Made by a program: the position numbers and the translations under genes. Shown one piece after another: positions 9,987 through 64,000 of a stretch of 64,000 nt of DNA (positions within the stretch are counted from its first letter, which is position 1; every line of letters starts with the position of its first letter). Under the pieces are notes generated by a model that saw only the letters and a list, made by a program, of their open reading frames with translations, was not told where the DNA came from and did no database searches. The DNA is from an uncultured Candidatus Saccharibacteria bacterium (GTDB lineage Bacteria > Patescibacteriota > Minisyncoccia > Phycocordibacterales > CSBR16-119): NCBI GenBank assembly GCA_964490365.1, contig CAZBAG010000002.1, positions 73,486 through 137,485 on the forward strand, in the 5' to 3' direction.

Positions 9987-10078
9987 ACTGGGTTAAGTAT
10001 ACTCCATAGGTCAAGAAATACCATATTTTATAAGGGGAAAATCGTTTATGTGGGCTCTGGGAGGGTTAGGTAAAGTAC

Positions 10079-10107
10079 TTGACAAAAATGCTTGAATATG
10101 CTATATT
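10079..10107 (+). promoter_or_regulatory. consensus sigma70-type promoter (TTGACA-17-TATATT)
   Basis: ttgaca at 10079-10084, a 17-nt spacer, then tatatt at 10102-10107. About 70 nt upstream of the 10176 start. Shares the 12-mer cttgacaaaaat with the promoter at 12233. Confidence 0.6.
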
Positions 10108-10175
10108 GTACACAGAAATGAGTCTTGGACTCAGACAAACAGAAACTAAAGCAATCACGATAAAACCCAAGAACC

Positions 10176-12068
10176 ATGAAGAAGTACCTTGTCATTTTCT
10201 TCGCGATAGTGAGGTTGGCATTGCCAGCCTTCTCGCAACAGGAGCTTTCTTACGAACAGTTCCAAAAGGTGAAAGAGGTCATTAAGGCCTCTCCCCAGAT
10301 GGAGTTCACAGAGGGTTATGCGACGAAGTTGAACATCAACAGTGTCAGTGATGACCACTGGAAGATGATCATTTCCAACCCTAATTACACGCAAGAGCAG
10401 AATCTGACTGGAGCATTCGAACTGATTGACCTTGCCAATGCCACGTCGGTGAAGGTATGGGACACCACTTTGACAGTTTTCGTATCTGACCTCTCTCTGG
10501 CATGGGAGACACGAGAAGGTGCGCCTGTTGAAGATCCTCGCTTCCGGATTCCAACCTATGAGGTTGGTACGAAGAAGATCATCAAGTCGTATACACTTGC
10601 CGGCGATACTGAAAAGACCCAAGAGCAATCTGAAGTCCTTGCAGAAAATGCCAGCACTACGACCCAAGAAGGATCTTCTGTGTCTACTAATTCTACCTCG
10701 TCTACAACAGCGGCGTCCGACAGCGTAAAAACCCCCGAACTTGTTCGCAAGGACAATCTTGGGAAGCGTGATGTGCTCAGCTTCTACAACCCGGCAACGG
10801 GCATGTATGAGGTGGCATATGATGGTCGTCGCTCACGTTGGCCATATCGTGATGACATGTCATGGAAGACCCGCAACGGTTTCTATGATGGTGGCTACGG
10901 ACTGATGCCAGTTGCATCTACCTTCTATCCTTCTTACAACTACGGTTTCCCAATGGGAGGCGGTGGATGGGGAGCTGGTTTTGGAGGTGGTTGCTATGGT
11001 GGAGGGTTCTCTGCTGGATTCAGCCTTGATTTTGGCTGGACCAGCGGCTGCAGTTATGCAAACCCTTACTATATGATGCCGAATCGCTACTCATCTGGGG
11101 GTGCCGCCATTTGGAATGGTTACACTCATGTGGGTATCGACTGGATCGGATCCGGCGTTGGTTGGAGTGCTGGTGGAAGCAATGGTTATTGGTACGATGA
11201 TGGCTGTGGTGGATGCAAATCCAACCAAGTTGCAAGTGCTGACACCTACGTTTCTGAAGCTGACAACAGCTACTACGCTGAAACTTCTGGAGGTGCAAAA
11301 TCTCTTCCCAATGCTCAACAGCAGCAAGAAGAGGTATTCACTTCTGTAGGGGTTTCGAAATTCTTGGCGAACGAAGATGTAGCGAAAGCTGCACCTGCAC
11401 GCGAGAATAACCAGTCGAAGGCTGCTCCGGTTACAACTGAAAATCGCATGAGCGATATTCCTACAACTCGCAGTGCTCAAGGGGAAGCATCTTCTCGGAC
11501 TACCGATCGTACCGAAGCACATGCTGAGGTCGGCAATCGTTTCCAAGATGTTGCTCCTACGCGCAAAGCACCTGCACCAACTGCGATGATTGAAGAGAAA
11601 CCTCGCAACTCGAGTAACTCTTCATTACGTGGTTCGCAGGATGTAAAACCTGGTCGTCATAATCCGGCTATCTCACAAGGTGGTCGCAGTGGTAACACTG
11701 CTCGTGACACTAGAAATACTTCGGCTCGCGCACAGCAAGATCCGAAGCCTGGACGCACTCGCAATGCAAGTGTGACCCCATCGACGAATCATCGAACAAC
11801 TACTGCTCCTCCGCAAACAACTCGTAGGTCAAACCCTGCCCCTCATATTGGGCAGAAACCTATGAACAATGGCGGTGGCAGGACAGTAAGTGCTCCTGCG
11901 GGACAAAACCGTGGACCGGTAACGCGTCCTACGCGTACCCAAAGGTCAAATTCGTCAGTTGGCGGAAAACAGCCGATGCGTTCTGCACCTGTGCGACAAG
12001 CGAACCCTCAAATGCGCCAAAAGCCAATGCGCTCTGCGCCGGCTCCTCGCGTACGGAAGGGTCGCTAA
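10176..12068 (+). CDS. secreted Gly/Trp/Tyr-rich protein with long basic disordered C-terminal tail; compositionally foreign
   Basis: Signal peptide MKKYLVIFFAIVRLALPAFSQQ. Central GGGGWGAGFGGGCYGGGF region. About 250 aa of R/T/S/P/Q/N-rich tail. GC about 50% and GC3 about 55%, against host GC3 of about 25-30%. Confidence 0.6.
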   Translation: MKKYLVIFFAIVRLALPAFSQQELSYEQFQKVKEVIKASPQMEFTEGYATKLNINSVSDDHWKMIISNPNYTQEQNLTGAFELIDLANATSVKVWDTTLTVFVSDLSLAWETREGAPVEDPRFRIPTYEVGTKKIIKSYTLAGDTEKTQEQSEVLAENASTTTQEGSSVSTNSTSSTTAASDSVKTPELVRKDNLGKRDVLSFYNPATGMYEVAYDGRRSRWPYRDDMSWKTRNGFYDGGYGLMPVASTFYPSYNYGFPMGGGGWGAGFGGGCYGGGFSAGFSLDFGWTSGCSYANPYYMMPNRYSSGGAAIWNGYTHVGIDWIGSGVGWSAGGSNGYWYDDGCGGCKSNQVASADTYVSEADNSYYAETSGGAKSLPNAQQQQEEVFTSVGVSKFLANEDVAKAAPARENNQSKAAPVTTENRMSDIPTTRSAQGEASSRTTDRTEAHAEVGNRFQDVAPTRKAPAPTAMIEEKPRNSSNSSLRGSQDVKPGRHNPAISQGGRSGNTARDTRNTSARAQQDPKPGRTRNASVTPSTNHRTTTAPPQTTRRSNPAPHIGQKPMNNGGGRTVSAPAGQNRGPVTRPTRTQRSNSSVGGKQPMRSAPVRQANPQMRQKPMRSAPAPRVRKGR

Positions 12069-12088: not shown

Positions 12089-12129
12089 CCCCACTATATG
12101 GGGTTTGGGGGAGGTCAGAAACCTCCCCC
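12089..12129 (+). terminator. tandem hairpin terminators
   Basis: ccccactatatgggg followed by gggggaggtcagaaacctccccc. Confidence 0.55.
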
Positions 12130-12232
12130 TCATTATTAAGTCTTTAATAGAAATATTGAATATTTAAGAGTGAAATATCTGAAAAAACGTTATATTACAA
12201 GCTTTAGGATATAGCTTGAGTAAATATAAAGC

Positions 12233-12261
12233 TTGACAAAAATATTATAAAGTGATATAAT
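12233..12261 (+). promoter_or_regulatory. consensus sigma70-type promoter (TTGACA-17-TATAAT)
   Basis: ttgaca at 12233-12238, a 17-nt spacer, then tataat at 12256-12261. About 50 nt upstream of the 12310 start. Confidence 0.6.
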
Positions 12262-12309: not shown

Positions 12310-13797
12310 ATGAAAAACACAATCAAAAATACAACAATCGTGGCATTCGTACTGGTGTTCTCATTCTCTGGTTTCATAAACACAGCGTTTGCAGCACCAA
12401 ACGGAAACGCTACATTTTGGAATGGTGAAGAACTTGTTCCAATTTCATGGGACGGCTCATCAAATAATAATGGAGGAAATGACAACGATGATGATGACGA
12501 TAATGATAACGACGGAGATCAAGTCACAACTCTCTCAGCGACAAGTATTGATGAAGATTCAGCAGTGCTTCGAGGAGAAGTAACAAATGGAAGTAATGTA
12601 GATGTGTGGTTTGTTATCGATGATAGCGACTCAACACCTTCATGTTCTGACGATGATCTCGAAGTAAGTGTTTCAGGAGACTTTGATGACGGAGATGATT
12701 TCTCACGAACAGTTTCTAATCTTGATGAAGATGAAACATATTATTTCCGAGCGTGTACGAACGATGACCCTGGCTCAGTTCGATCATTTACAACCGACGA
12801 TGATAATGGTAACAATAATAATGACGACGATGACGATAGTGATGACAACGACAACGGAAACAATGATGAAGGTAATGTTGTAGCGTACACAAGTATTGCA
12901 ACCAATGTTACAACAAGTTCAGCGTTTCTCAACGGTGTGTCAGTTATCAATGAAGGAGGTTCTGGAAATGCATGGTTCGAATATGGTCTTACAACAGCTC
13001 TTGGTGAACGAACACCAAATCAGTCTGTTGGTAGCGGATCAAACAATGTTTCTCGACAAATTCTTAATCTTTCGCCACGAACTCCATATTATTTCAGAAT
13101 GGTTGTTCAAAACAGTGAGGGAACAGACGCAGGAGATATCTCTACATTTACAACTGGTGGTTTCTCAACAACAAACACAGGAACAACACCAAAACCTACA
13201 GGAACGACAACAACATCAGTAACAACAACTAGTGCTGTGTTTCTAGGTCTTGATATTGAATCAAACCTCGACACTGTGTCTGTTGGAGATATTGTTACCT
13301 ATACGGTTTCGTATAAAAACATTTCAGGAAAAGATCTGAAAAATGTGATTATGCAAGTTACACTTCCATACGAAGTAGCATTTCAAAAATCTACTATTGG
13401 TGGATACTCGAAACCAACACACACCGTAACAGTAACCGTTGAAACTCTTCCAAAAGATGTTAAAGGTGAATTTGTGGTGGTCGGTGAAGTTCTAAAGACT
13501 GCTCGAGGATCATCAATCCTTATTGCATCACTCCTTGGAATTCATGATCATCCAACAATCGCCGATGCGAAAGTTGATTCACTCAGTTATTCAATTATTG
13601 AAGTTGACCTGGGGAATGCAAGTCAATCTGCAAACTCAGTATTTGCAGGGACATTCTTCCCAACATCATTTATTGGATGGCTTCTGATTGTTCTGATCAT
13701 CTTCCTTATCATTCTTATTGCCCGAAAAATGGCAAAGGATAAAGAGGAACGAGAAGAACAAAAAAAGAAAGAAGAAGGAATTAAAATAGCAAAATAA
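12310..13797 (+). CDS. cell-surface protein: signal peptide, poly-Asp/Asn tracts, duplicated beta-rich modules, DUF11-like repeat, C-terminal TM anchor
   Basis: Signal peptide. NDNDDDDDNDND and NNNDDDDDSDDNDN low-complexity tracts. Two related modules (TSIDEDSAVLRGEVTNGSNVDVWF / TSIATNVTTSSAFLNGVSV...AWFEYG). VGDIVTYTVSYKNISGKDL resembles a DUF11 repeat. C-terminal hydrophobic helix plus a KKEE tail. Confidence 0.55.
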   Translation: MKNTIKNTTIVAFVLVFSFSGFINTAFAAPNGNATFWNGEELVPISWDGSSNNNGGNDNDDDDDNDNDGDQVTTLSATSIDEDSAVLRGEVTNGSNVDVWFVIDDSDSTPSCSDDDLEVSVSGDFDDGDDFSRTVSNLDEDETYYFRACTNDDPGSVRSFTTDDDNGNNNNDDDDDSDDNDNGNNDEGNVVAYTSIATNVTTSSAFLNGVSVINEGGSGNAWFEYGLTTALGERTPNQSVGSGSNNVSRQILNLSPRTPYYFRMVVQNSEGTDAGDISTFTTGGFSTTNTGTTPKPTGTTTTSVTTTSAVFLGLDIESNLDTVSVGDIVTYTVSYKNISGKDLKNVIMQVTLPYEVAFQKSTIGGYSKPTHTVTVTVETLPKDVKGEFVVVGEVLKTARGSSILIASLLGIHDHPTIADAKVDSLSYSIIEVDLGNASQSANSVFAGTFFPTSFIGWLLIVLIIFLIILIARKMAKDKEEREEQKKKEEGIKIAK

Positions 13798-19117: not shown

Positions 19118-19642
19118 TTAATTAAACCTTTTTCTGTTTACGATGAGTATTAGGATGAATACTAGTGCAGTAAGAGACATTACAGGAATATCGATGTATC
19201 CAAACTTTGTGAATAATTCTTGTAAACAAGATGGCCCAACCGCAGAACAATCAAATATTTCACTATTTGTTGTTCTTGAAAATACGTGGAATAGAGCGAC
19301 GATTGCCCCTAAGACAGCAAGTGTACTTATGTAGTTCCAAATATCTTTCCCTGTTTTTTTAATAAGTGCGACACAAGAGATTATGGCAATACTGTAAATC
19401 ACTATTCGTTGGTACCAGCACATAAGACATGGTAAGTAGCCAATAACTTCAGAATAGAAAAGACTTGCCAGCATTGATCCTCCCATTATAAATAGAGTTA
19501 AAACCAAAGCCTTGTCACTGAACCATTTTGCAAGAGCGCCCTTATCTTTTGTGGCGATCATTATAAGAAGCAGTACTGATGTAATTTGCACAAAAACGGT
19601 TCCTAAACTTAGTATTGTATTTGTTGTATTTGCTAAGCCCAT
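19118..19642 (-). CDS. disulfide bond formation protein B-like (DsbB/BdbC family) membrane thiol oxidase
   Basis: Four TM helices. CLMC (CxxC) in the first extracytoplasmic loop and a later Cys pair (CSAVGPSC). Adjacent to a thioredoxin-fold gene. The start was moved to MGLANT at 19642 to avoid an 80-nt overlap. Confidence 0.5.
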   Translation of the reverse strand: MGLANTTNTILSLGTVFVQITSVLLLIMIATKDKGALAKWFSDKALVLTLFIMGGSMLASLFYSEVIGYLPCLMCWYQRIVIYSIAIISCVALIKKTGKDIWNYISTLAVLGAIVALFHVFSRTTNSEIFDCSAVGPSCLQELFTKFGYIDIPVMSLTALVFILILIVNRKRFN

Positions 19643-19643
19643 A

Positions 19644-20096
19644 TTAACTAAGTGGTGCGTCTGAAGAAGTATTAGTTTGAACAGGTGTCTCCTCAGTTGC
19701 ATTTGTTGGCAATGTTGCTTCACATGCAGTTTTTTCTGCTAGAGCTTCTGGAGTTTGTTCTCCTGTGAGCCGTGTTCCATCTGCAAAGATCCATGTAGGA
19801 TAACTTTGGATTTGATTATCAATACATACTTGTGTCTGACCTTTTCCATCTGGGGTTGAACATTCTACATAAGGAAGCAATTCCTCGGATTTTCCAAAAG
19901 CCTTTTTCTGGTTATTACAGTGTGGACACCAAAACGCACCATAGAACTTTGCACCAGCTTCTCCAAGGCATGTTGCTAGAGCATTGTACTGTCCTGGTTT
20001 GCCAGACTCCTTATTACTTTTTTGTTGCAAAATGACGAGTCCGCCAATAACAAGAGCAGCGATAATAACAATTGAAATTATTGTTTGTTTATTCAT
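19644..20096 (-). CDS. membrane-anchored thioredoxin-fold thiol:disulfide oxidoreductase (DsbA/BdbD-like)
   Basis: N-terminal signal anchor and a WCPHC active site. Confidence 0.65.
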   Translation of the reverse strand: MNKQTIISIVIIAALVIGGLVILQQKSNKESGKPGQYNALATCLGEAGAKFYGAFWCPHCNNQKKAFGKSEELLPYVECSTPDGKGQTQVCIDNQIQSYPTWIFADGTRLTGEQTPEALAEKTACEATLPTNATEETPVQTNTSSDAPLS

Positions 20097-24920: not shown

Positions 24921-24956
24921 ACCGTAAGTATAAAACTTACTTTGTTCATCCATCTG

Positions 24957-25028
24957 TGCTCTCGGCAGGAATCGAACCTACATTTTAACTTCCGCAAAGT
25001 CATGTCCTATCCATTGAACGACGAGAGC
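24957..25028 (-). tRNA. tRNA-Arg (anticodon reads GCG)
   Basis: Manual cloverleaf: acceptor gctctcg/cgagagc, D-arm gttcaatggataggac, anticodon stem tgact/agtta with loop ttgcgga, T-arm gtaggttcgattcctgc. Confidence 0.65.
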
Positions 25029-30629: not shown

Positions 30630-32333
30630 ATGACTATTGCAGAAATCCCTGAAAAATTAGATAAAGAATTGGCACGATATTCTCCACTTATCCGTAGACT
30701 TCTTGTAAATAGAAATATAACAACAGCAGAAGAGGCGAGAGCCTTCATGTTTCCTTCATACGAAGATGATGTTCATGATCCATTTTTAATGAAAAATATG
30801 GAAGGTGTTGTTTCTCGGATTTATACTGCGATACAGAATAATGAAAAAATTGTCGTATATTCAGACTACGACTGCGACGGTATTCCAGGCGCGGTGATTA
30901 TGCATGAATTTTTTAAAACTGTTGGTTACACGAATTTTGAAGTGTATATTCCTGATCGACACAAAGAAGGATACGGTTTAAATGCTGATGCGGTTCGTCA
31001 GATTGTAAAAGATGGGGCACAACTTTTAATAACACTCGATCTTGGTATTACCGCAGTAGCGGAAACAACACTCGCAAAAAGTTTAGGTATGGATGTGATT
31101 ATTACCGACCACCACCAACCCCAAGAACAACTTCCCGAAGCTCTTTTTATCTTAAACCCAAAACAAGAAGGTGATAGGTATCCTGACAAGATGCTCTGCG
31201 GTTCTGGAGTTGCTTTCAAATGCATACAATCATTTTTAAAAACATATGGAAAAGAATTTGGTGTGAAAGAAGGTTACGAAAAATGGATGCTCGACATGGT
31301 TGGTCTTGCAACTCTTGCTGACATGGTGCCACTACGAAATGAAAATCGGGTGTTCGCATATTATGGTTTAAAAGTTTTAAGAAAAACAAAACGTCTTGGA
31401 CTTCTGAAACTTTTTAGAAAGACATCACTGAAACCTGAAACACTTCAAGACGAAGATATTACATTTACGATTTGTCCTCGTCTAAATGCAGCAGGAAGAA
31501 TGGATCATCCTCGCTATGCGTTCGACCTACTTGTTGCAGACAATGAAGACGCAGCTGAAACATCAGCTGCGTATCTTACGAAAATAAATAATGAACGTAA
31601 AACGCTTGTTGCTACGATGATGCGATCGGTGCACAAAGAGGTTTCGGCACGACAAAAAGATTTCTCTGTTATTTGCATTGGTGACACAACATGGCGAGCG
31701 GGTGTGCTTGGTCTTGTTGCAGGAAAGATTGTTGATGAATATAAGAAGCCAGCTTTTGTGTGGGGGCTTGAAGGTGGTGAAACAATAAAAGGTTCGTGTC
31801 GTTCGTCTGGCGAAGTAAATCTTGTAGACATGATGACACTTCTTCCTGAAAATAGCTTGCTTGAATTTGGTGGTCACGAGATGGCTGGAGGTTTTTCGGT
31901 TTCTCGTGAAGAAATTCATTTCCTTGAAGAAAGGTTAGAGGAGGCGTATCAAAATACTCCCAAAAAAGAAGTTTCACGAAATGAGGAAGTTCTTGTTGAT
32001 GCAGAGCTTTCTCTCGATGAGGTGCGCAAAGATGTATTTGAAGAAATTAATATGTTGGCACCATTTGGTGTTGCAAATCCAAAACCAGTTTTTCTATTTC
32101 CGAGCATTGAAGTTTCTGAAGTGCGAACATTTGGAAAAAATAATGAACACATCGAGCTATCATTTAAAAACTCAAAAGGAAAAATAGTAAAGGCTATTCA
32201 ATTTTTTAAATCGTTTCACAGTCTTCCTTCTCATGTTCGAGCAGGGAATAATATTAATTTGAAGGCACATATTGAAAAATCTACATTTGGATGGAAAGAA
32301 GAGATACGACTTCGGATAGTTGAGATTTCTTAA
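30630..32333 (+). CDS. recJ: single-stranded-DNA-specific exonuclease RecJ
   Basis: DHH motifs (DYDCDGIPGA, ITDHHQP) and a DHHA1 C-terminal domain. 567 aa. Confidence 0.85.
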   Translation: MTIAEIPEKLDKELARYSPLIRRLLVNRNITTAEEARAFMFPSYEDDVHDPFLMKNMEGVVSRIYTAIQNNEKIVVYSDYDCDGIPGAVIMHEFFKTVGYTNFEVYIPDRHKEGYGLNADAVRQIVKDGAQLLITLDLGITAVAETTLAKSLGMDVIITDHHQPQEQLPEALFILNPKQEGDRYPDKMLCGSGVAFKCIQSFLKTYGKEFGVKEGYEKWMLDMVGLATLADMVPLRNENRVFAYYGLKVLRKTKRLGLLKLFRKTSLKPETLQDEDITFTICPRLNAAGRMDHPRYAFDLLVADNEDAAETSAAYLTKINNERKTLVATMMRSVHKEVSARQKDFSVICIGDTTWRAGVLGLVAGKIVDEYKKPAFVWGLEGGETIKGSCRSSGEVNLVDMMTLLPENSLLEFGGHEMAGGFSVSREEIHFLEERLEEAYQNTPKKEVSRNEEVLVDAELSLDEVRKDVFEEINMLAPFGVANPKPVFLFPSIEVSEVRTFGKNNEHIELSFKNSKGKIVKAIQFFKSFHSLPSHVRAGNNINLKAHIEKSTFGWKEEIRLRIVEIS

Positions 32334-32366
32334 AGAGGGTGGTATTCTGTTTAAAATTTCACGACC

Positions 32367-32753
32367 ATGGAAATGCTCCTTCAGTTGGTTCTTATTTTTC
32401 TTTGTTTTTTCCTTGGATGGATAGCACATGGATCACATAGACTGTTGAATACATATTCCCAATCCAGTAGGCTTGCTCTTGTGTCGTTGGTATATCTCAT
32501 CTTGATTCCAGCGCCTTTGTTTCTCTATGAAGAGAAGGTCTCATCAATTATCATGATGACTGCTTTACTTGTAGAGTATTCAATCAGTACATTCATGGCA
32601 GATGAAAAGATGCACGAAGAGCACTCCGTTACCTACAAGGCTCAGAAAGAAATGAAGAAGAGGTTTAAGCAAGAGCGAAGAGAAGCTCTCCAGATCTCTA
32701 GGCAGAGAAAAAACGAAACAGTGCAAATGTCGCACATCCAAGACCAGCTTTGA
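32367..32753 (+). CDS. hypothetical membrane protein
   Basis: Three predicted TM helices followed by a basic C-terminal tail. Confidence 0.35.
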   Translation: MEMLLQLVLIFLCFFLGWIAHGSHRLLNTYSQSSRLALVSLVYLILIPAPLFLYEEKVSSIIMMTALLVEYSISTFMADEKMHEEHSVTYKAQKEMKKRFKQERREALQISRQRKNETVQMSHIQDQL

Positions 32754-32776
32754 GGCTGGTCTTTTTCTTTGGTACA

Positions 32777-33493
32777 ATGACTTCAATGTCAGAGAATATA
32801 CAAGAGATAAAAATCTTTACTGATGGTGGTGCAATCGGGAATCCTGGTCCTGGTGGATGGGGGGCAATCATCTTGAATGAAACTTCAAAGAAGGTGATTG
32901 AACTCGGTGGCAAAGAAGACAAGACAACCAACAATCGAATGGAGATGATGGCAATTGTCCAAGCACTCAAATATTCTCCAGACGGGCTAATTACTATCTA
33001 CTCAGATTCAAAATACACTATTACTGGTATCACTCAGTGGGTGTTTGGTTGGGAGAAAAATAATTGGAAGACAAAAAACAAAACTGATGTACTCAATAAA
33101 GATCTATGGCAAGCGTTGATTGAAGTTACAAAAGATAAAGAAATCGAATGGAAGCATGTTGAGGGTCATGTTGGTATTGCTGGAAACGAAAGAGTAGACA
33201 CTATTGCCAACTCATTTGCGCGGGGTAACGAAGTTTCTCTTTTTAATGGTGATCTCAAAGAATATTCAGTGAATCTTCTTGATATGAAAAAAAATGAAGC
33301 TGCGGCTTCACAAAAAGCAAAAGCTAAATCAAGTGCAAAAGCCTACTCGTACATCAGTATGATTGATGGAAAAATTGAAAAGCATACTACCTGGGCAGAA
33401 TGTGAAGCGAGAGTAAAAGGTAAAAAGGCCAGATTCAAAAAAACTCTTTCAAAAGAAGACGAAGAAAAAATTATTAGTGAATGGATTAAGTAA
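32777..33493 (+). CDS. rnhA: ribonuclease HI with C-terminal hybrid-binding (Cauli_VI-like) domain
   Basis: RNase H core (IFTDGGAIGNPGPGGWGAIIL, MEMMAIVQAL, IYSDSKY, HVGIAGNERVD). C-terminal YSYISMIDGKIEKHTTWAECEARVKGKKARFKKTLSKEDEEKI matches the RNase H1 N-terminal hybrid-binding domain pattern. The start was trimmed to MTSMSE. Confidence 0.75.
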   Translation: MTSMSENIQEIKIFTDGGAIGNPGPGGWGAIILNETSKKVIELGGKEDKTTNNRMEMMAIVQALKYSPDGLITIYSDSKYTITGITQWVFGWEKNNWKTKNKTDVLNKDLWQALIEVTKDKEIEWKHVEGHVGIAGNERVDTIANSFARGNEVSLFNGDLKEYSVNLLDMKKNEAAASQKAKAKSSAKAYSYISMIDGKIEKHTTWAECEARVKGKKARFKKTLSKEDEEKIISEWIK

Positions 33494-33498
33494 CCTCT

Positions 33499-34962
33499 AT
33501 GAGGGATACTATTATTTTTGTTAGCACCTTCTCGTTTTTAGGAGGTGTTTTTCTGAGTTCTATTTTTACGATACCTACTGAATATTTTTGGATATTTGGT
33601 GTAGTGTTCGTAGTGCTTATTGTCAGTTTTTTCTTGCTTCGAAAAAAGACATTACTACTTGTTTCGTGTGGTGTACTTTTTGTATTTCTTGGAATTTTTC
33701 GTTTTCATCATAAAGACATTCGTGAGCCAAAAACTATTTTTGACGATATTGTTGGAAGTGAAGTACAGTTTGAAGGCGTGATACAGCAGGACCCCGATAG
33801 AAGGGAAAATAATCAAAGAGTTATTGTTGGTTTTGAAGGTGTTGACGTTCTTGTTTCTACTGAGCTGTATCCTGAATTTACCTACGGTGATCTTGTCCAA
33901 GTTTCTGGTGTGCTCGAAAAGCCAGAAAATTTTAAGACAGATATTGGGAAAGAATTTGATTACATCCACTATCTTTCAAAAGATAGTATTTATTACACTA
34001 TTTCATACGGGGATGTCACACTTGTTTCAAGTGGTCATGGAAGTGGATTTATGAGTGTTGTTCTTAAGACAAAACATACCTTACTTAATACACTAGAAAA
34101 AATTATTCCACCTCCACAAAGTTCGCTCTTGGGAGGCTTGTTACTTGGAACAAAGCAATCACTTGGAAAAGATTTAGAGCAACGTTTTATTGATACTGGG
34201 CTGATCCATATTGTTGTTTTGTCTGGGTATAACGTTACGATTGTTGCAGAAGCAATTATGCGACTACTTTCTTTTTTACCGCTCGTTGCTAGTGTCGCGA
34301 CAGGGTCGCTTGCCATTGTGTTGTTCGCGCTTATGACGGGTGCCGGGGCAACGATTGTTCGAGCCAGTATTATGGCGATTATTGCCCTTATTGCACGAGC
34401 AACGGGAAATGCTTTTCACATGACTCGAGCACTCATGTTTGCTGGATTCCTCATGGTTCTTCATAATCCATACATTCTCTACTTCGATCTTTCTTTTCAG
34501 CTTTCTTTTTTGGCGACCCTTGGACTTATCTATCTTTCACCACTCTTTGAGAAATATTTCCAGTGGCTTCCTAAAAAGTTTGGACTTCGAGAAATTGCCT
34601 CTGCAACACTTGCTACACAAATTTTTGTATTGCCATTTATTCTCTACACTATGGGCACCCTTTCTCTCATTGCACCGTTTACCAACCTCCTTGTATTGCC
34701 ATTTGTGCCACTCACCATGTTCTTTGGCTTTCTTACTGGGCTTGTCGGACTACTATCTCCAATAGTTGCTATACCGTTTGGCTTTGTTGTAAACGTGCTT
34801 CTTAAGTTTGAAATAGCTGTTGTTACGCTTTTTTCAAAATTACAATTTGCGGTGATGGAGGTAAAAAATTTCCCACTATGGCTTGCGCTGGTTGTATACC
34901 TCATTATCTTTTGGTTTTTGTATAAACAGTATAAAATTTATTCTAATGAACAGAGAACATAA
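33499..34962 (+). CDS. comEC: ComEC/Rec2 competence channel protein (DUF4131 + Competence domain portion)
   Basis: Multi-TM protein. SLLGGLLLGTKQSLGKDLEQRFIDTGLIHIVVLSGYNVTIV is the Competence-domain signature. Confidence 0.75.
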   Translation: MRDTIIFVSTFSFLGGVFLSSIFTIPTEYFWIFGVVFVVLIVSFFLLRKKTLLLVSCGVLFVFLGIFRFHHKDIREPKTIFDDIVGSEVQFEGVIQQDPDRRENNQRVIVGFEGVDVLVSTELYPEFTYGDLVQVSGVLEKPENFKTDIGKEFDYIHYLSKDSIYYTISYGDVTLVSSGHGSGFMSVVLKTKHTLLNTLEKIIPPPQSSLLGGLLLGTKQSLGKDLEQRFIDTGLIHIVVLSGYNVTIVAEAIMRLLSFLPLVASVATGSLAIVLFALMTGAGATIVRASIMAIIALIARATGNAFHMTRALMFAGFLMVLHNPYILYFDLSFQLSFLATLGLIYLSPLFEKYFQWLPKKFGLREIASATLATQIFVLPFILYTMGTLSLIAPFTNLLVLPFVPLTMFFGFLTGLVGLLSPIVAIPFGFVVNVLLKFEIAVVTLFSKLQFAVMEVKNFPLWLALVVYLIIFWFLYKQYKIYSNEQRT

Positions 34963-38316: not shown

Positions 38317-39348
38317 ATGTTTCTTATTTTAGAAAAACTTTTTTTTAATTTTGGACCAATACTTTTCGGTGCTGCAGGATTCTTTCTTGCCTCATATGTG
38401 TACACCAAAAAACATAAACAAGAAAACCTTGTGTGTCCAATGAATGGAAGTTGTGACGAGGTTGTGAATAGTAGATATTCAAAATTTCTTGGTCTTCCAG
38501 TGGAAGTTCTCGGCATGATCTACTACGCGTTTATTGTTTTAGTGTACAGCGCTATGCACCTCTACCCTCATGTATTTAGTGATGTGGCTAAATTTTTTAT
38601 AACAGGGATAACTGTCGGTGCCTTTTTCTTTTCAGTGTATCTTGTAACTATTCAGGCATTTATATTAAAAAAATGGTGCACATGGTGTCTTTTTTCTGCA
38701 GGTTTCAGTACATTTATTTTTATAACCGCTATTTTCACTACAGACTTCTCACTCATTTCTTTACTTGCCGAATACCGTACTACGATTATCATTTTCCATG
38801 CACTGGCAGCCTTGGTAGGTGTCGGCACCGCAACAGTGACTGATGTTTTCTTCTTTAAATATTTGAAAGATTACAAAATATCAGAAAGTGAACAAAAAAC
38901 TATGGAAACGCTCTCGGGTGTTATTTGGATTGCGCTTGGTGTACTCGTCTTAACTGGTATTGGATTGTTTGTTCCAGAATCAGAGCGCCTTCTTGATTCA
39001 TCAAAATTCATAACAAAGTCGTTTGCTGTGTTTGTGCTTATTATTAATGGTGTGTTGCTCAACTTAAGTATTTCGCCACGAATGATGGAGATTACCTTTG
39101 GCGACAACTTTAGCCACCAAAGACATGATTTACATAGATTGCGAAAACTCGCCTTTGCTCTTGGTGCGATCTCTATTACATCGTGGTATACCGTTTTTGT
39201 CCTTGGTTCTCTTAAGTCAATTCCTTTGTCTATCCAACAAGCGCTTTGGGCATATCTCACATTGCTTGTTGTGGTAATTGTTGTCTCTCAAGTTTTTGAT
39301 CATGCCATGATTCAAAAAAGAAAAAGAGAACTATCACTTAATAAATAA
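38317..39348 (+). CDS. vitamin K epoxide reductase (VKOR) family membrane protein with extended C-terminal membrane domain
   Basis: Loop cysteines CPMNGSC, a CTWC (CxxC) at the start of a TM helix, and about 8 TM helices. 343 aa. Confidence 0.65.
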   Translation: MFLILEKLFFNFGPILFGAAGFFLASYVYTKKHKQENLVCPMNGSCDEVVNSRYSKFLGLPVEVLGMIYYAFIVLVYSAMHLYPHVFSDVAKFFITGITVGAFFFSVYLVTIQAFILKKWCTWCLFSAGFSTFIFITAIFTTDFSLISLLAEYRTTIIIFHALAALVGVGTATVTDVFFFKYLKDYKISESEQKTMETLSGVIWIALGVLVLTGIGLFVPESERLLDSSKFITKSFAVFVLIINGVLLNLSISPRMMEITFGDNFSHQRHDLHRLRKLAFALGAISITSWYTVFVLGSLKSIPLSIQQALWAYLTLLVVVIVVSQVFDHAMIQKRKRELSLNK

Positions 39349-47878: not shown

Positions 47879-50800
47879 TTGTATATGAAGTTACAAAAAG
47901 CATTCTTTCTTGTTCTCGGCCTCGCCTTTTTGGTGTCGCTGGGTTCTTTAGTTTCTGGGGCACCTGGTCAAAAAGCTCAAGTAGTTAGTGGACAAAACTC
48001 TATTGGTGTTACATCACCATCAACAAGCACTATTGTAGCAGCAGGGCAATCTGTTCCTACAACATGTCAGTATGCTACGGCGTCTGGATTCTCAGTAACG
48101 ACACTTCAGTGGTCAGCTGAGACGACAAATGATCTCGAAACACCTATTACAAGTATGGTTCCAACTGGAGCAACAGGATCTGAAACAAGAAATATCGTAG
48201 TTCCTGTTGGCGGCACTGGCTCTGTCATCTTAAAGTGTTATGCTGAATACGCAAATGCTTCTACAGGTGTTGAAATGCAAATTGCATCTCAAAGAGTTCT
48301 CAATATCTCTGGAACTGTAACACCTCCAACAAACGACACCACAGCACCTACTGTTCCATCAGGACTTACTGTAACTGCAACAAGTTACTCAAGTCTTACA
48401 CTTAACTGGACAGCATCCACAGATGCAGGTGGTGTAGCTTCATACGAGATCTTCCGAAACAATGGAGGGTCAACAGCAATCAATACAACAACTCCTATCG
48501 CTGTAGTTAATCATCCAACAACTACATATCTAAACTCAGGTCTTCTTGCGAATAAGACATATAAATATAGAATACGAGCAAAGGATACAGCGGGAAACGT
48601 TTCATCACTTACTTCAACAGTAAGTCGAACAACTCTCGCTATTGGTATACCAACAAACGTTACCATTACCAATCCAACAACTTCATCTCTTACGGTAAAC
48701 TGGACAGCGCCAACAAGTGGAGCATACGAATATGCAATTTTTGCAAACAACGGTGGTACCACAGCAATCAATACAACAACTCCTATTGCAACAGTTCCAG
48801 CGGGTGTAACAACATACACACGAACAGGACTTACTCCTGCAACTTCATATAAATTTAGAGTAGCAGCCCTTACTGATGCGGGTAGTCGATCATCTCTTAC
48901 AACTGTGAAAACAGGCGTGACAGCAAGTAGTGGACCATCTGACACCACCGCCCCAACAGTAACCATCACAGCTCCAACTGCTTCACAAGTTCTTGCAGCA
49001 GGTACTACTTCTACAAACCTTACGGTTACCACAAACGAGAATGCAACCTGTAAATGGTCAACAACCAACACAGCATACGCAAGTATGACCAACACCATGA
49101 CAGGATCTGGTTCTACTTCACACTCAGCTTCTCAAACAGGTCTTACCAATGGAACATCATACACACGATACGTATCATGTGCTGATACAGCAGGTAATGC
49201 TTCGACAACACAAAGTAGAGCGTTTAGTGTGGGATCTCCAGTTGCTGATACTACTGCACCAACATTCTCTGGTCTTGCAGCAACAGCTTCAACGGTAAAC
49301 TCAGTTACTCTTGATTGGTCAGATTCTACAGATCCTTCATCTCCGGTGACCTATAAGATTTACCGAAGCACAACTCAAACAGGAACATTTACTCAAGTTG
49401 GAGGAACTCTTTCAACAAGTGCATTTGTTGATTCTGGTCTTACTGCTTCAACAACATATTGGTATAAAGGAGTTGCTTGTGATGCGGTCAACAATTGTTC
49501 AGCTCAAAGTGCGGCGGTAAGCCGAGCAACAACTGCTGCTCCTGACACCACCGCCCCAACAGTAACCATCACAGCTCCAACTGCTTCACAAGTTCTTGCA
49601 GCAGGTACTACTTCTACAAACCTTACGGTTACCACAAACGAGAATGCAACCTGTAAATGGTCAACAACCAACACAGCATACGCAAGTATGACCAACACCA
49701 TGACAGGATCTGGTTCTACTTCACACTCAGCTTCTCAAACAGGTCTTACCAATGGAACATCATACACACGATACGTATCATGTGCTGATACAGCAGGTAA
49801 TGCTTCGACAACACAAAGTAGAGCGTTTAGTGTGGCTCTTGCAGCGCCAAGTGCACCAACCGGTGTAACAGTTGGCTCTCCAACAACTTCATCTCTTGTT
49901 GTAAACTGGACAGCAGTAACTAGTGCAACATCATACAAAGTCTATCGAGTTGCTTCAAACGGTCTTGTTGATGGGACTATTCCAGCGCTTACAGTTGCAA
50001 CACCAAACGTATCAACAACCGTTACAGGGCTTTCATCTGGTACCGCATACCGATTCCTCGTAACAGCAGTGAACTCTGTAGGCGAATCAACACTAACTCC
50101 AAGTGGAACAAACAATGCAAGTGCAACAACATCTTCACCACAAATTACTGTTTCATCACTTGAACTTGTTCGAACAAACGGAACAGTTGTTGAATCACTC
50201 GATGGAGGAGAATCAATTAACGTTGGAACTCAAAATGGAGGAGTGGGTCCAAACATTTCAGTACGAGCAAGCACAAACCCAGCTACTCCAGGAAGTGTTG
50301 TATTCTCTCTCCAAAAACCAAACAGTACAACACACACACTTACTGAAAACTCTGCGCCATATACGTTGTTCGGCGACACCAGTGACACAGTGATTGTTGC
50401 TTGGCAAAACCTTCTTCCAGGAGGATATACACTAACTGTAACTCCATACGCAGGTACAAATGGAACAGGACAAGTTGGAGTACCACGAACAGTGCAATTC
50501 CAAATTGTAAACAATGATGACACCACAGCACCAGTAAACCCAACAAACGTTGCGATTACGTATCGATCAGCATCTCAACTTAAAGTTGGATGGACTAATT
50601 CAACATCATCTGATGTTGCTTCATATCGAGTCTACCGAGACAACGTTTCTATGGGTGTTGTGAATCATCCAACAAATACATTTACTGATACATCAGTAAA
50701 TGCGACAGGAAACTATGTATACAAAGCAGTAGCAATTGACACATCAAACAATGAAGCAACTCTTCCAGGAACTGGTGTAACTTCGCCAACACTTTCTACA

Positions 50801-53800
50801 GCCTTCGTACTTAACAATCAAGTAGAAACAAATACAAGTGCTCAGGTTAAATCAGCACCTGAATCAACAACTGTTGCTGGTACACAAGCAACAGGTTCTA
50901 TTGGAACAATAACAAACGGACCAGTATGGGTAACAGGCGGTGTTCAACACTGGTATGTTAACTTTAACTCAGGTACTGATGGTTGGGTAAACCAAGCTAA
51001 TCTTGACCTCTATACAGCACCAACAACTGATACTACTGCGCCAGCATATCCAGGAGGAAATGCAGCATTTACCGTAACAGCAGGATCACAAACATCACTC
51101 GTCCTTGATTGGGCAGATGCAACAGACGCAACAGCTCCAGTAACATATAAAGTTTCAAGAAGTACTTCTGCAAGTGGACCATTTACTCAAGTTTCTCCAG
51201 CATTCACAGCAAGTACCTTTAACGACAACAACGCTGGTCTTACCGCAGGATCAACACGATACTACCAATTGATTGCTTGTGACGCCGTAACGCCAACTCA
51301 AAACTGTACAACACCAATTGTTCAAGGGGGTACAACTTCACCTGTTGTTGATACGACTGCTCCAACAGTAACGATTTCAGCGCCAACAGCAAATGAAGTA
51401 TTCCCATCAGGAACAACCAACGCAACACTTACTGTTTCTACGAACGAACCAGCAACCTGTAAATGGTCAACAACCAACACAGCATACGCAAGTATGACCA
51501 ACACCATGACAGGATCTGGTTCTACTTCACACTCAGCTTCTCAAACAGGTCTTACCAATGGAACATCATACACACGATACGTATCATGTGCTGATACAGC
51601 AGGTAATGCTTCGACAACACAAAGTAGAGCGTTTAGTGTGGCCGTGTTTGTTCCTGACACAACAGCTCCAGCCGGAACCTTAAACCCAGTAGTAGGTTCT
51701 CCTACATCAAGTAGTCTCACTGTTTCTTGGTCAGCTCTTACCGATTCAACAACACCAATTAACTACCGACTCTACCGAAGCACAACTCAAACAGGAACAT
51801 TTACACAAGTTGGTGGAAATATTACTGGTACATCATATGTTGACACTGGACGATCTGCTTCAACAACATATTGGTATAAAGTAGATGCCTGTGATAGTGC
51901 TACGACACCAAACTGTACTTCTCAATCAGCGGCAGTAAGTGGAACAACTGTTTCAGAGGGAACTGAACCACCAATTACTACAACATGTCCTACAATGCCT
52001 TCAATTACTGGAGACATTCACACACAAAAAGCAGTACAACTATGTGCAGAAATTTCAAACAACCCAAATAGAATCACTCTTAAGTGGGCAAACGTTTCAG
52101 GAAGAACGCAAACAAGTGCAACAATCTCAAGAAAAGCTGGCCTAGCTTCAACCTCATTCACTTCACTAGGAACAGTATCAGGTAATGCAACAAGTTACGT
52201 TGATAACACTGCGGTTGCTGGAACATACTATGAATACAAGGTTCAAGTAAACTCAAATGCATACGGATATATTGCTGCTGGAATCAATGTTCCTCAAGAA
52301 TCATATCGAGGTAAAATGGTTCTTGTTATCGACAACACATTCCAAACATCACTCGCATCACAAATTAGCACACTCGTAGATGACCTTACAGCTGATAAAT
52401 GGGTGGTAATACCAAAATATGTAAGTCGAAGTGATACACCAACAACAGTTCGAAATGCTATTAAAGCAGAATACGATGCCGATCCAACAAACGTAAAGGC
52501 CGTATATCTTCTTGGACACGTTCCTGTTCCACGAGCTGGAAACTTCAATGGTGATGGACATGGATCACGTGCGCTTTCAACTGATACATATTATGGAGAA
52601 ATGACTCAAGAGTTCAATAAACTCTCAAATGGATGTACACCATATACAGAAATCTCAAACATACCAGCTGGCCCGTCTGATTGGAGTCTATCGCCGATAA
52701 ACTACTCTCAATGGCAAAGTCCATATCAAGTGAGTTCATTTATGCCAATTCCACCAACGACTCATAAATTCTGTCTTACAAGTGGTCAAACTCCTTCTGC
52801 TCTTGAACTGCAAGTTGGACGAGTAGATATGTTTGCGCTTACAGTCTATAGTCAATCAGAACAAACACTACTTTCAAACTATCTAACAAAAGCAAGAGAA
52901 TTTAAGAGAAAAGTGTGGACACCGGTAAAAAGAGCATTTATCCGAGATGGACTTATCTATCAAGGATATGATGGAGGTAAGTTCGTATGGGGGATGTTGC
53001 CATCTATTGTTGGACCACTTGTCGGATCAAACATTACGGCAGATAACGGTGTAAGTAGTATGGCCGCAATGAACACGGCAACATCAAGTGCAAATACATA
53101 CTTGTTTACGTCGTTACGATACGGAGGTACAACAACTGCTGTTGACTATGCTGGAGGTACGGCTCTTGGTAGTAGTTATACACATGCATCATCAGGATTT
53201 GAAATGGGTGGTGTGTTTAATCAATATGTAGCAAGTTATATTCCAGAATGGGGAGACTATAATGCACTTCTTCGAGCCGCTCTTGCTGATGGTAAGGCTC
53301 TCGCTTCTATGCATGGTGATGACCGAAACTGGTACTTGCATTCAATGGGTCTTGGTCAAAATATTGGTTACGCAGGTAAGATGACTGTAAATAACACAAC
53401 CTCACTATATGTTCCAGTCGGAGGTATCTGGGATAGCAACTATGGCGGTAATGGGTTTATGTCACTTCTTGGCGATCCATCACTACGAGCTGAATATGTT
53501 GCTCCGGTTTCTTCTCTCACACTTTCAAACAGCTCTGGTAAGACAGCAATGTCATGGCCAGCAGCTTCAAGTGCTACTCATGGGTATAATGTATACAAAA
53601 TAACTTCAGGTGGTATTACAAAACTTAATGGAGCACCGATCACAGGAACAAGTTACACTTCAACAGATAACTATACTTCAGGAAACAAATACATGGTTAC
53701 TGCAGTAAAACTTGAAACAACAAACGGTGGAACATATTACAATGAATCGCTTGGTGCAATTGCAACAGTCGGTGGGGTGGCCTCAGATACGACGGCCCCC

Positions 53801-56577: not shown

Positions 56578-57006
56578 ATGAAAATTGGATTGAAATCACA
56601 GGTAAAGAACAGTAAAGATTTTACGATTATTAAAGCGAAAAAAGGTGCAGGATTTGGACTCAAAACAAATAAAAGCTTTAAAAAAGGCGACTTTGTTATT
56701 GAATATATTGGTATAAAGCGACTTAATAAAGATATTGAATACCATACAGGAAAATATCTATTTGAAATTGATGAAACGTACACGATTGATGGAAGTCCAC
56801 GATGGAACATTGCTAGGTATATTAATCATTCTTGTCGACCAAACTGTGAAGTAGAGATTGATGCAGAAGGGAAAATACTCATTGAGGCAATAAAGCCAAT
56901 ACAACCAGGAGAAGAAATAACGTACGATTACGGCAAAGAATACTTTAATGAATTCATAAAGCCAATTGGGTGTAGATGTGTAAAGTGTTTAGCAAAAAAG
57001 AAATAA
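56578..57006 (+). CDS. SET domain protein (putative protein lysine methyltransferase)
   Basis: GAGFGL, RYINHSCRPNC (the NHSCxPN SET hallmark), EEITYDYG, and a post-SET Cys cluster CRCVKC. Confidence 0.7.
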   Translation: MKIGLKSQVKNSKDFTIIKAKKGAGFGLKTNKSFKKGDFVIEYIGIKRLNKDIEYHTGKYLFEIDETYTIDGSPRWNIARYINHSCRPNCEVEIDAEGKILIEAIKPIQPGEEITYDYGKEYFNEFIKPIGCRCVKCLAKKK

Positions 57007-57008
57007 GT

Positions 57009-57698
57009 ATGGATCAAGAAAAACAAGAAAATATACATAAAAAAAAGTTGATGGTTTCAATTCCTCAGGCAATTGTGGTGGCGGGTGTTCTTATTTCACT
57101 ATCGGTTATTTTTTCATCATCACAGTCATCAAACACTTCAGCTGAGCTTGGCTCAGTAAAACAGGTACCGATTCCTGAAGTTACTGAAGCTGACTTTATT
57201 TTGGGAAACAAAAATGCAGAGATTACTCTTGTAGAATATTCTGATTTTTCATGTGGTTTTTGTGCACGCTACCATCCAACCATGAAGCAAATTGTTGCTG
57301 AATACGACGGAAAGGTTCGCTGGGTATATAGACACTTGCCAATTTTTAATAAACCCGCAGCAGTTTCTGCATCGTGTGTTGGAAATACTCTCGGAGACAC
57401 TTCGTTTTTCTCATATACCGATACCTTGTTTGCAAACCAGAAAAATATCGACTCAGCCCTGCTAAAAAGGGAAGCTCTAGCACTCGGCATGACTGATTCT
57501 GACTATGAAGCATGTATTAATGACAAAGAATTGCAAGATACTATTACAAAAGAATTTACTGCGGTGCGGGTATTGGCCGGTTTTAATGCAACACCGTACA
57601 GTGTGTTAATTGATAAAAAAGGTAATATGCACCCATTTTCAGGTGCGTTGCCGTATGAAGAAGTATCTGCACTGATCGATTCATTATTAGCAAGTTAA
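57009..57698 (+). CDS. membrane-anchored DsbA-like thioredoxin-fold oxidoreductase
   Basis: TM anchor, a CGFC active site inside LVEYSDFSCGFCARYHP, and a DsbA-like length. Confidence 0.65.
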   Translation: MDQEKQENIHKKKLMVSIPQAIVVAGVLISLSVIFSSSQSSNTSAELGSVKQVPIPEVTEADFILGNKNAEITLVEYSDFSCGFCARYHPTMKQIVAEYDGKVRWVYRHLPIFNKPAAVSASCVGNTLGDTSFFSYTDTLFANQKNIDSALLKREALALGMTDSDYEACINDKELQDTITKEFTAVRVLAGFNATPYSVLIDKKGNMHPFSGALPYEEVSALIDSLLAS

Positions 57699-63495: not shown

Positions 63496-63509
63496 TTATT
63501 TAAAAACAG

Positions 63510-63537
63510 AAAGGCCGGACCCTTGGGTCCGGCCTTT
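63510..63537. terminator. bidirectional terminator
   Basis: aaaggccggacccttgggtccggccttt. Confidence 0.6.
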
Positions 63538-63553
63538 GCCGTTTGATGTGTTG

Positions 63554-64000
63554 TTACTTCACTTCATCTTTCTTGATGATCGTCTGTGTTCCACGCTTGA
63601 TGTCGAATTTGTCCGGATCCATGTTGGCGTAGAGCCTCATGTTCGGGAACATGCTCATCAAGTCTTTAGCCCAGAACTGAGCGATTCTCCGCACAGTCGG
63701 ATGGACGGTCTGTGGAGTTCGCAGTTCAACAATGTAGACAAGGTGTGCGAGACCAACCGAGAACTCGATCGATACCTTGTAGCCCATTGGTGTCAGATAC
63801 TGCTTGTCTTCGAGCGAAAGATCGAGCGCCTCGAGTCTATTTTGGTAGTTCTCAAGCCATTCGCGCACTTTTGCTGCCATGGGTTCAGGCATCTGCTTGA
63901 GATACCATTCCTCGAAGCCAAGTCCGGTGGTCAGAAGTGGCATGCTCTGATTCATACTACGCTGACGATGTAAGTCACGGAATGAGCGGAAGTCGATGGT
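63554..64000 (-). CDS. hypothetical protein, compositionally foreign (GC3 about 60%); N-terminus may lie beyond the window
   Basis: The reading frame is open to the window edge upstream of the listed Met. Codon usage is sharply different from the neighbours. No confident family assignment. Confidence 0.45.
   Translation of the reverse strand, partial: TIDFRSFRDLHRQRSMNQSMPLLTTGLGFEEWYLKQMPEPMAAKVREWLENYQNRLEALDLSLEDKQYLTPMGYKVSIEFSVGLAHLVYIVELRTPQTVHPTVRRIAQFWAKDLMSMFPNMRLYANMDPDKFDIKRGTQTIIKKDEVK

Follow-up and report, generated by a model that had tools for sequence, protein, structure and literature searches.

A resident gene of atypical composition in a Candidatus Paceibacterota clade: synteny, hypervariability and predicted mRNA structure of a probable envelope protein

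Is a gene that differs sharply in base composition from everything around it a newcomer to its genome, or can a resident gene come to look foreign? The question is raised by a single gene (the target) in a 64,000-nucleotide stretch of contig CAZBAG010000002.1, deposited as DNA of an uncultured Candidatus Saccharibacteria bacterium; the whole stretch is called the window below, and coordinates are counted in it unless stated otherwise. A first-pass annotation had read the target as a recent horizontal acquisition encoding a secreted protein rich in Gly and aromatic residues. The open reading frame (ORF) is real, and so are most of the features described for it; the acquisition is not. The target is a resident of a genus-level Candidatus Paceibacterota clade, placed there vertically, and it belongs to a clade-restricted, previously undescribed family without relatives in any described protein family.

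10176..12068, + strand: coding sequence (CDS) of the target; 630 amino acids (aa), precursor of 68 kDa, mature protein of 66 kDa with an isoelectric point (pI) of 9.3.

With a GC content of 0.510 against 0.382 for the window, the target agrees with the annotated value of about 50%, while the background is 38% and not the 36% given. GC at third codon positions (GC3) had been put at about 55%, which is too high for the gene as a whole (0.453); values of 0.56–0.60 are reached only in the first 145–200 codons, and the tail has 0.37. When synonymous choice was modelled from the window's other genes with amino acid composition controlled, a GC3 of 0.275 was expected for the target (z = 10.8), compared with z values of −4.2 to +4.0 across 33 other genes of the window. 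The target is the strongest compositional and codon outlier of the region, and it stays so under the control for amino acids by which the annotation had proposed to judge it. Amino acids alone predict a GC content of 0.448 and, given this together with the codon z, about half of the GC excess comes from the Gly/Arg/Pro/Ala/Ser/Thr-rich protein and about half from codon choice, which is a conserved avoidance of A-ending codons: A at third positions (A3) is halved (0.20 vs. 0.36–0.44), C3 and G3 are raised and T3 is unchanged. The deviating arginine codons noted at first are evident (CGC+CGT 75% vs. 20% in the background, AGA+CGA 9% vs. 69%), as are further shifts such as TTC (89% vs. 29%) and AAG (62% vs. 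22%); the leucine shift, also noted, is present, but it is small and rests on 21 codons. Two long antisense ORFs (10155..10667 and 11091..11546) were taken as by-products of the high GC.

Relatives of the target were found by a word-indexed protein search, which returned 5 and to which a repeat with the family profile added none (probably low-complexity words swamped the candidates), and by an exhaustive HMMER search of 1.84 billion cluster representatives, which returned 18 family representatives. These are 509–650 aa long, save for one fragment of 176 aa, and one architecture is common to all; one of them comes from an NCBI metagenome-assembled genome of Candidatus Paceibacterota. Seven further loci (L001, L002/L004, L006, L007, L008/L009, L010 and L011) were compared with the window, giving eight alleles in total. 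At every locus that reaches far enough, RuvB and PilB are encoded on one strand and, divergently from them, the target, a DUF11/CLIPPER-domain protein, TsaE and PolA follow in this order. Identity to the window is 80–91% for PilB, 87–88% for RuvB, 84% for PolA and 45–80% for the DUF11 protein, while it is only 30–37% for the target. The anomaly itself is conserved, as the GC3 of the target is 0.44–0.61 against 0.21–0.38 for its neighbours at seven of the eight loci; the weak case is L009 (allele P0017), where the target has 0.34, its immediate neighbours 0.28–0.32 and two upstream genes, with 0.38–0.40, exceed it.

Two observations on database entries belong here. L004 is labelled 'Candidatus Saccharibacteria', yet in PilB it shows 91% identity to the Paceibacterota loci. 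For P0009 (L010, around 700–733) the start given in the database (MSLAQVDG...) is truncated, and an upstream in-frame ATG (MKNLVILFVLVAPLVSLAQ...) restores the family signal peptide.

Recent import from a donor of about 50% GC, not yet ameliorated, would explain the atypical composition and a codon bias that persists with amino acids controlled, but synteny refutes it: all seven other loci have the gene in its slot, and the anomaly recurs in the orthologues. Neither an integrase nor flanking repeats or other mobility signatures were found around the target, the nearest tRNA gene lies 8 kb away, and no homologue was found in phages, so that a phage origin is not supported either. The family was not met outside the PilB/DUF11 slot (18 matches in 1.84 billion representatives, with all eight examined loci in the same context), a search for related loci with a narrow family alignment returned only contigs that were already known and no GC-rich genome carrying the family, and conservation is higher in the promoter and leader than in the genes on either side. 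We consider recent import hardly credible. An ancestral import that has not been ameliorated is also unlikely, because the four-fold degenerate sites of the flanking genes (at conserved residues) are only 37–60% identical between genomes, mostly 37–51%, with saturation at about 30%. At four-fold sites GC3 is 0.36–0.47 in the target and 0.10–0.33 in its neighbours. Neither kind of import fits; the composition bias is being maintained, and as the strongest codon outlier of the region is a resident, atypical GC3 alone is no evidence of horizontal transfer.

What maintains the bias may lie in the messenger RNA (mRNA). The mean minimum free energy of 150-nt windows was compared with that of synonymous-codon shuffles made within 60-codon blocks, by which both the protein and the local codon usage are kept. 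The eight alleles of the target gave z values of −6.6, −5.9, −8.1, −7.4, −7.6, −5.4, −11.0 and −5.1, compared with +1.1 to −1.9 for 13 control segments from nine genes, and the neighbouring DUF11 gene, which has a promoter of the same class, showed a milder excess of predicted structure (z −1.6 to −3.6). Against a dinucleotide-shuffle null, in twelve non-overlapping windows, the mean z was −1.21 for the target (Stouffer about −4.2) and −0.09 for pilB (about −0.3). In three of four alleles the sense strand shows 2.5–3 times the excess of the antisense strand, and because it is mostly a sense-strand excess the signal points to RNA rather than DNA. Since the alleles share almost no DNA similarity, selection must either preserve the structure or build it anew in every one. 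The codon shift gains a possible reason here, as the change from A-ending to G/C-ending codons supplies pairing potential. Examples of selection for high structure through the placement of synonymous codons are known from across the tree of life (PMC6544989), and the target resembles them in its non-random synonymous arrangement and in having far more structure than codon-shuffled nulls; it differs from them in being extreme for one family in its neighbourhood, in persisting without DNA similarity between alleles and in being coupled to a gene-specific GC3 shift within an AT-rich genome.

Classical translational selection would read the same codons differently, with CGY, TTC, TAC, ATC and, in four-fold boxes, NNT/NNC as the optimal codons of a very highly expressed gene. 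The 75% CGC+CGT and 89% TTC agree with this, as do the avoidance of CGA, AGA, TCA, ACA and CCA in three orthologues, a bias that weakens from the folded N-domain to the disordered tail, the presence of a tRNA-Arg(GCG) gene, which would read CGY (24956–25028), and the expression-linked codon bias reported for S-layer genes (PMC3666127). However, the genes for L11, L19 and NusG, and likewise the DUF11 gene with its equally good promoter, have the usual AT-rich third positions, which makes generic translational selection the weaker explanation. In addition, AAG, GAG and CAG rise while AAC, GAC and CAC do not, which speaks for avoidance of A3 rather than matching to tRNAs, and the tRNA genes of the window number seven only. 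As the account of the bias, translational selection seems to us quite improbable. The tRNA-Arg gene is an observation in its own right: its anticodon is GCG and not the usual bacterial ACG, yet most genes prefer CGA and AGA.

The protein on which these codons act can be divided as follows.

10176..10235, + strand: Sec-type signal peptide MKKYLVIFFAIVRLALPAFS, aa 1–20, with cleavage predicted before QQ (site taken from the family alignment).
10248..10610, + strand: acidic, predicted folded N-domain, aa 25–145, pI 4.8; three helices and four long strands, motif DTTLxVxVSDLS.
10611..10730, + strand: Ser/Thr/acidic linker, aa 146–185, assigned by composition; variable and poorly alignable.
10731..10886, + strand: 'type A' middle module, a near-invariant 52-aa core TPELVRKDNLGKRDVLSFYNPATGMYEVAYDGRRSRWPYRDDMSWKTRNGFY, aa 186–237.
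10887..11225, + strand: Gly/aromatic region, aa 238–350, with 28% Gly, 21% W/Y/F and 4 Cys.
11226..12065, + strand: basic tail rich in R/S/T/P/Q/N/G/A, aa 351–630, pI 11.4, ending in the family-conserved ...KPMRSAPAPRVRKGR.

The Sec signal proposed at first is probable, as the family alignment conserves MKK, a hydrophobic stretch and (A/S/V)x(A/S) followed by Q, an AXA-like cleavage site which in the target reads MKK-hydrophobic-AFS followed by QQ. The N-domain, also annotated as ordered, is the only part resolved by AlphaFold2 from a truncated alignment of 17 sequences (predicted local distance difference test score, pLDDT, of 80–91 over aa 25–145); a full-length run with six sequences was unusable (pLDDT 29), and the homology check of this domain gave no significant PDB match. 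Columns of the core are almost all invariant among five sequences that are only 35–47% identical overall, and in other alleles the core is replaced by an unrelated 'type B' module. The Gly/Trp/Tyr-rich region with its four Cys was described correctly; its motifs (GGFSAG..FGW..G...N....PNR..GG...WNGY...I) and its Cys are conserved, and AlphaFold2 confidence is low in it. Because genes for DsbA-like, VKOR and DsbB-like proteins are found in the window and in L001, disulfides are possible in this region. The window's full disulfide-formation set (DsbB-like, VKOR and a DsbA-like thioredoxin), together with RecJ and ComEC for the uptake and processing of DNA, lies within 30630–34962, 19118–19723, 38317–39348 and 56976–57698, and an extracytoplasmic set of this kind fits a Cys-containing secretome. 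The long basic tail is likewise as annotated, with a net charge of +25 in its last 250 aa (+14 to +28 in all eight alleles); its composition is conserved and its sequence is not (11–30% identity in most pairs), except for the C-terminal motif P.R(S/N/G)A....(K/R)R.

Searches of the target against Pfam, NCBIfam and PDB sequences gave no match. It has neither an LPXTG (LPxT[GAS]) motif nor a transmembrane anchor, its C-terminus is hydrophilic and basic and does not suit sortase anchoring, and its N-terminus has neither a lipobox nor a prepilin motif. A type IV pilin or pilus subunit, which the adjacent pilB had brought to mind, was rejected, since the N-terminus is a classical Sec signal without the class III G/(F,M)xxxE motif.

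The protein evolves very fast, by module exchange, under fixed expression signals. DNA homology to the other loci extends over pilB, the intergenic region and approximately the first 30 nt of the CDS, is then lost, and returns at the stop codon; inside the CDS, the core alone can still be aligned as DNA with L001 and L002. Identity matrices of the separate protein segments are incongruent between alleles: in P0006 an N-domain and middle module of 'type B' are joined to a tail 60% identical to that of the 'type A' P0004, and P0005 (type A) and P0011 (type B) are 63–68% identical over the Gly-rich region and the proximal part of the tail. As DNA, L002 and L006 are set apart by a cleanly replaced segment of about 700 nt, which spans the N-domain and middle module and whose flanks can be aligned at 76–88%. 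From this swap and the incongruent matrices it follows that the locus diversifies by exchange of modules between alleles. Neither silent cassettes nor repeats of the gene were found by blastn against the rest of the 64-kb window, the gene has no internal tandem repeats, and one allele (P0017) is identical on nine contigs; as far as the sequences let us see, this would not be a fast within-clone switch. A target of a diversity-generating retroelement was considered and rejected, as no part of the gene is repeated elsewhere in the window and there is no reverse transcriptase among the subset of ORFs scanned with Pfam. One pair of entries also differs in length: L004 (3730–5730) and L002 (863–2737) carry the same allele, but L004 has a 42-aa tandem duplication (QVGTSRIFKSFVPSEEVEGGAAASAGSTGAEKSAKADTTKSD), which may be true variation or may have arisen in assembly.

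Such a locus could be a recombination hotspot in which GC-biased gene conversion, or alleles from GC-richer relatives, keep GC3 high and mRNA structure is a by-product or a separate matter. Besides the module shuffling and the clean cassette swap, several observations suit this idea: the limits of homology coincide exactly with the ends of the mature CDS, the GC3 excess peaks in the swapped N-terminal cassette and falls from 5' to 3' in all alleles, and GC3 follows hypervariability and not promoter strength, as the DUF11 gene has the same promoter class and low GC3. Lassalle et al. (2015) are said to have found higher GC3 in recombining bacterial genes. Possible exchange partners are hinted at in L001 (2603–6266 of that locus), where PALP (0.61), two small ORFs (about 0.50–0.52) and YebC (0.46) are GC3-rich near the target, the other neighbours there having 0.14–0.38 and the counterparts of these genes 0.38–0.40 (YebC in the window and L009, PALP in L009); this suggests regional exchange with GC-richer relatives. 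On the other hand, recombination leaves the sense-biased structure excess of all alleles unexplained, A3 alone drops and T3 does not, no GC-rich genome with the family was found, and an allele identical on nine contigs means that turnover is not rapid. We regard recombination-associated GC bias, or import from GC-richer relatives, as a serious partial rival to selection on the mRNA, and as a rather unlikely explanation of the whole.

The expression signals that stay fixed around this changing sequence, and the gene that follows it, are given below.

10079..10107, + strand: sigma-70-type promoter; −35 TTGACA at 10079–10084, spacer of 17 bp, TG of an extended −10 at 10099–10100, −10 TATATT at 10102–10107.
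10114..10175, + strand: predicted 5' untranslated leader of about 62 nt, A/C-rich, without a Shine-Dalgarno motif, highly conserved across loci.
10119..10133, + strand: predicted 6-bp hairpin UGAGUC-UUG-GACUCA within the leader (RNAalifold consensus, also the centroid structure of the leader).
12107..12139, + strand: intrinsic terminator; 9-bp stem with 7 G-C pairs, 5-nt loop, then a T-rich tail.
12233..12261, + strand: promoter of the next gene; TTGACA-17-TATAAT, 12/12 consensus matches, with TG, sharing CTTGACAAAAAT.
12310..13797, + strand: DUF11/CLIPPER-domain surface protein (Pfam PF01345), the candidate partner; signal peptide, poly-Asp/Asn tracts, C-terminal transmembrane anchor.
10024..10042, strand not assigned: intergenic block TATTTTATAAGGGGAAAAT in the spacer that separates pilB from the target; it does not vary among the window, L001 and L002 and is also present in L006–L011.

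The promoter had been called a perfect consensus; its layout is as described and it even has the extended −10, but with 11/12 matches it is one base short. The 12-mer CTTGACAAAAAT, said to be common to this promoter and that of the next gene, occurs exactly twice in the 64 kb (10078 and 12232; 0.04 copies expected), and these two promoters are the only TTGACA-N17-(TGn)TATAWT sites of the window, with a 33-nt block of the target promoter 76% identical to that of the DUF11 gene. The target promoter is kept in all eight loci, and the 190 nt upstream of the gene show 85% identity across the window, L001 and L002, compared with 77–81% for the flanking coding sequences. The block at 10024..10042 is possibly a divergent pilB promoter (TATAAAAT, minus strand).

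Transcription would start near 10114, as judged from the position of the −10 box. In the leader hairpin, L001 replaces one U-A pair by C-G, a compensatory change, and one A-U pair by G-U; the alleles that are more distant have other hairpins there. The leader as a whole is not unusually structured (z = +0.6); apart from this small hairpin, its sole conserved structure, it is A/C-rich and unstructured. Downstream of it (10176–10202), codons 2–3 (AAG AAG) can pair with codons 8–9 (UUC UUC) in a 7-bp stem that includes the start region and uses codons rare in the genome on both sides; the stem is kept in L001 and not in L002. Since a Shine-Dalgarno-like motif is found in only 4/41 genes of the window, a start without one is the norm of the genome, and what is unusual for the target is its long leader. 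At several genes of the window a TATAAT box stands 5–10 nt ahead of the ATG (e.g., 39965, 41086, 42856 and 62666), which suggests that leaderless or near-leaderless mRNAs may be widespread in this organism. Rfam gave no match in or near the target.

The DUF11 neighbour in the window has a net charge of −45 and a conserved KDKEE...GIKIAK tail, and across loci its charge is −23 to −45 in five of six. CLIPPER has been described as an isopeptide-bond domain (PMC12617251).

Taking these lines together, the explanation towards which we lean, with somewhat better than even confidence, is that the target encodes a strongly transcribed, hypervariable, non-covalently attached coat or adhesin of the envelope, whose synonymous sites are selected for a structured and probably long-lived mRNA. 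The earlier proposal of a secreted, probably highly expressed surface factor agrees with the signal peptide, the extended −10 promoter, the conserved leader, the terminator and the structured mRNA. Transcription would begin at one of the two strongest consensus promoters of the window and give a transcript that opens with the conserved leader of about 62 nt and its small hairpin and ends at the strong terminator. The product would be exported by the Sec pathway to give a mature protein of about 66 kDa, in which the acidic N-domain, Ser/Thr linker, core and Gly/aromatic Cys region are followed by a disordered tail of about 280 aa with a charge near +25. Selection may favour a structured, RNase-resistant, long-lived mRNA, which in a small, ribosome-poor cell could give a high output from a single gene, while diversifying selection would act on the exposed modules of an abundant envelope protein. 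The cationic tail could anchor the protein non-covalently on anionic envelope polymers; further binding partners might be the acidic DUF11 neighbour with its membrane anchor or the surface of a host cell.

Several points weigh against this explanation. Abundance and surface location are both deduced from sequence features, and the structure excess is a thermodynamic prediction. In L010 the antisense excess is nearly as large as the sense excess, and in L009 a strong structure excess goes with little GC3 excess, so that the two are separable; selection for structure explains the arrangement of codons, but the avoidance of A-ending codons only indirectly. In E. coli, ORF-wide structure goes with lower and not higher translation efficiency, so any benefit would have to run through the lifetime of the mRNA. 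The target has no recognised wall-anchoring, lattice or self-assembly domain. Finally, the DUF11 protein of L010 has a net charge of +2, and since electrostatic pairing fails there, we keep this pairing as a hypothesis only.

The lack of a covalent or membrane anchor, together with the Arg-rich tail of +25, would also suit a different role, either as a released effector or toxin acting on a host envelope through a membrane-active Gly/aromatic region, or as an extracellular nucleic-acid binder feeding DNA uptake by PilB and ComEC. pilB adjoins the target, ComEC and RecJ are encoded in the window, and hypervariability is also typical of effectors in host interaction. However, the target is divergent from pilB and shares no operon with it, no HhH, OB, other DNA-binding or toxin domain was found, and an invariant core together with a conserved motif at the C-terminus suggests that the protein binds some constant component of the cell itself. 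Such a role appears unlikely. To hypothesize further in the direction of the envelope coat or adhesin, one may imagine that ultra-small, ribosome-poor Paceibacterota hold a single hypervariable surface-protein gene in a fixed expression cassette (consensus promoter, hairpin leader and terminator) and add gene-wide selection for an 'armoured' mRNA, a selection that outlasts module swapping and the complete turnover of the coding sequence, with the product as the main coat or adhesin that sets host or phage specificity in the clade; the gene would then look compositionally foreign because of gene-wide selection for base-paired mRNA. This stronger version is possible, and we hold it as doubtful.

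Among known systems, the S-layer genes of Lactobacillus come to mind, which have efficient promoters, long-lived mRNAs with stabilising 5' untranslated regions (UTRs) and biased codons, and whose proteins have a high pI and bind teichoic acids non-covalently (PMC3666127). Like the slpA/cbsA type, the target has a Sec signal and no covalent anchor, is a basic protein (pI 9.3 vs. 9.4–10.4 in lactobacilli) and combines a conserved part with a highly variable one; at the level of sequence features it also shares an efficient promoter, a stem-loop in the 5' UTR, atypical codons and a strong terminator. Unlike S-layer lattice proteins, nearly half of it is disordered tail plus Gly/aromatic region, its structure excess covers the whole CDS and not the UTR alone, and it belongs to no S-layer family (SLH, CWB2 or Lactobacillus SlpA classes).

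The vlsE-type loci of Borrelia contain a GC-rich (about 50%) surface-protein gene in an AT-rich genome, which is diversified by segmental recombination. The target is similar in its contrast to an AT-rich genome and in its segmental mosaicism, which is seen between genomes only. It differs in that neither silent cassettes nor internal repeats were found in the 64 kb, a marked GC skew is absent, the variation lies between genomes (with the one allele identical on nine contigs) and the proteins are unrelated. Mycobacterial PE_PGRS proteins are Gly-rich, polymorphic, recombination-prone and envelope-associated, with a composition partly dictated by GGN codons. The target shares with them the Gly-richness, the polymorphism, the proneness to recombination and the influence of GGN codons; it differs in lacking a PE domain, in having a short (113 aa) and aromatic-rich Gly region instead of Gly-Ala repeats, and in the AT-rich host genome, which makes the contrast far larger.

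This clade-restricted family is probably the most strongly transcribed and fastest-diversifying envelope component of these uncultivated episymbiont-type bacteria, which would make it a candidate for host attachment and specificity or for a phage receptor. By tying a conserved GC3 shift to a conserved, sense-biased mRNA structure, the family also offers a natural case in which to test, for ribosome-poor cells, whether selection acts on the structure and stability of mRNA.

Two minor observations concern composition elsewhere in the window. A second GC-rich stretch lies at 63500–64000 (about 0.50 vs. 0.38), where Rfam gave no match; the + strand ORF at 63536..63973 looks spurious, and the plausible frame is on the minus strand, running off the right end of the window, with the C-terminus ...DPDKFDIKRGTQTIIKKDEVK and a stop near 63555. 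At 47879–56224 a giant protein of 2781 aa is encoded, with fn3 repeats, a right-handed beta-helix and codons that are 'more typical than typical' (z = +9).

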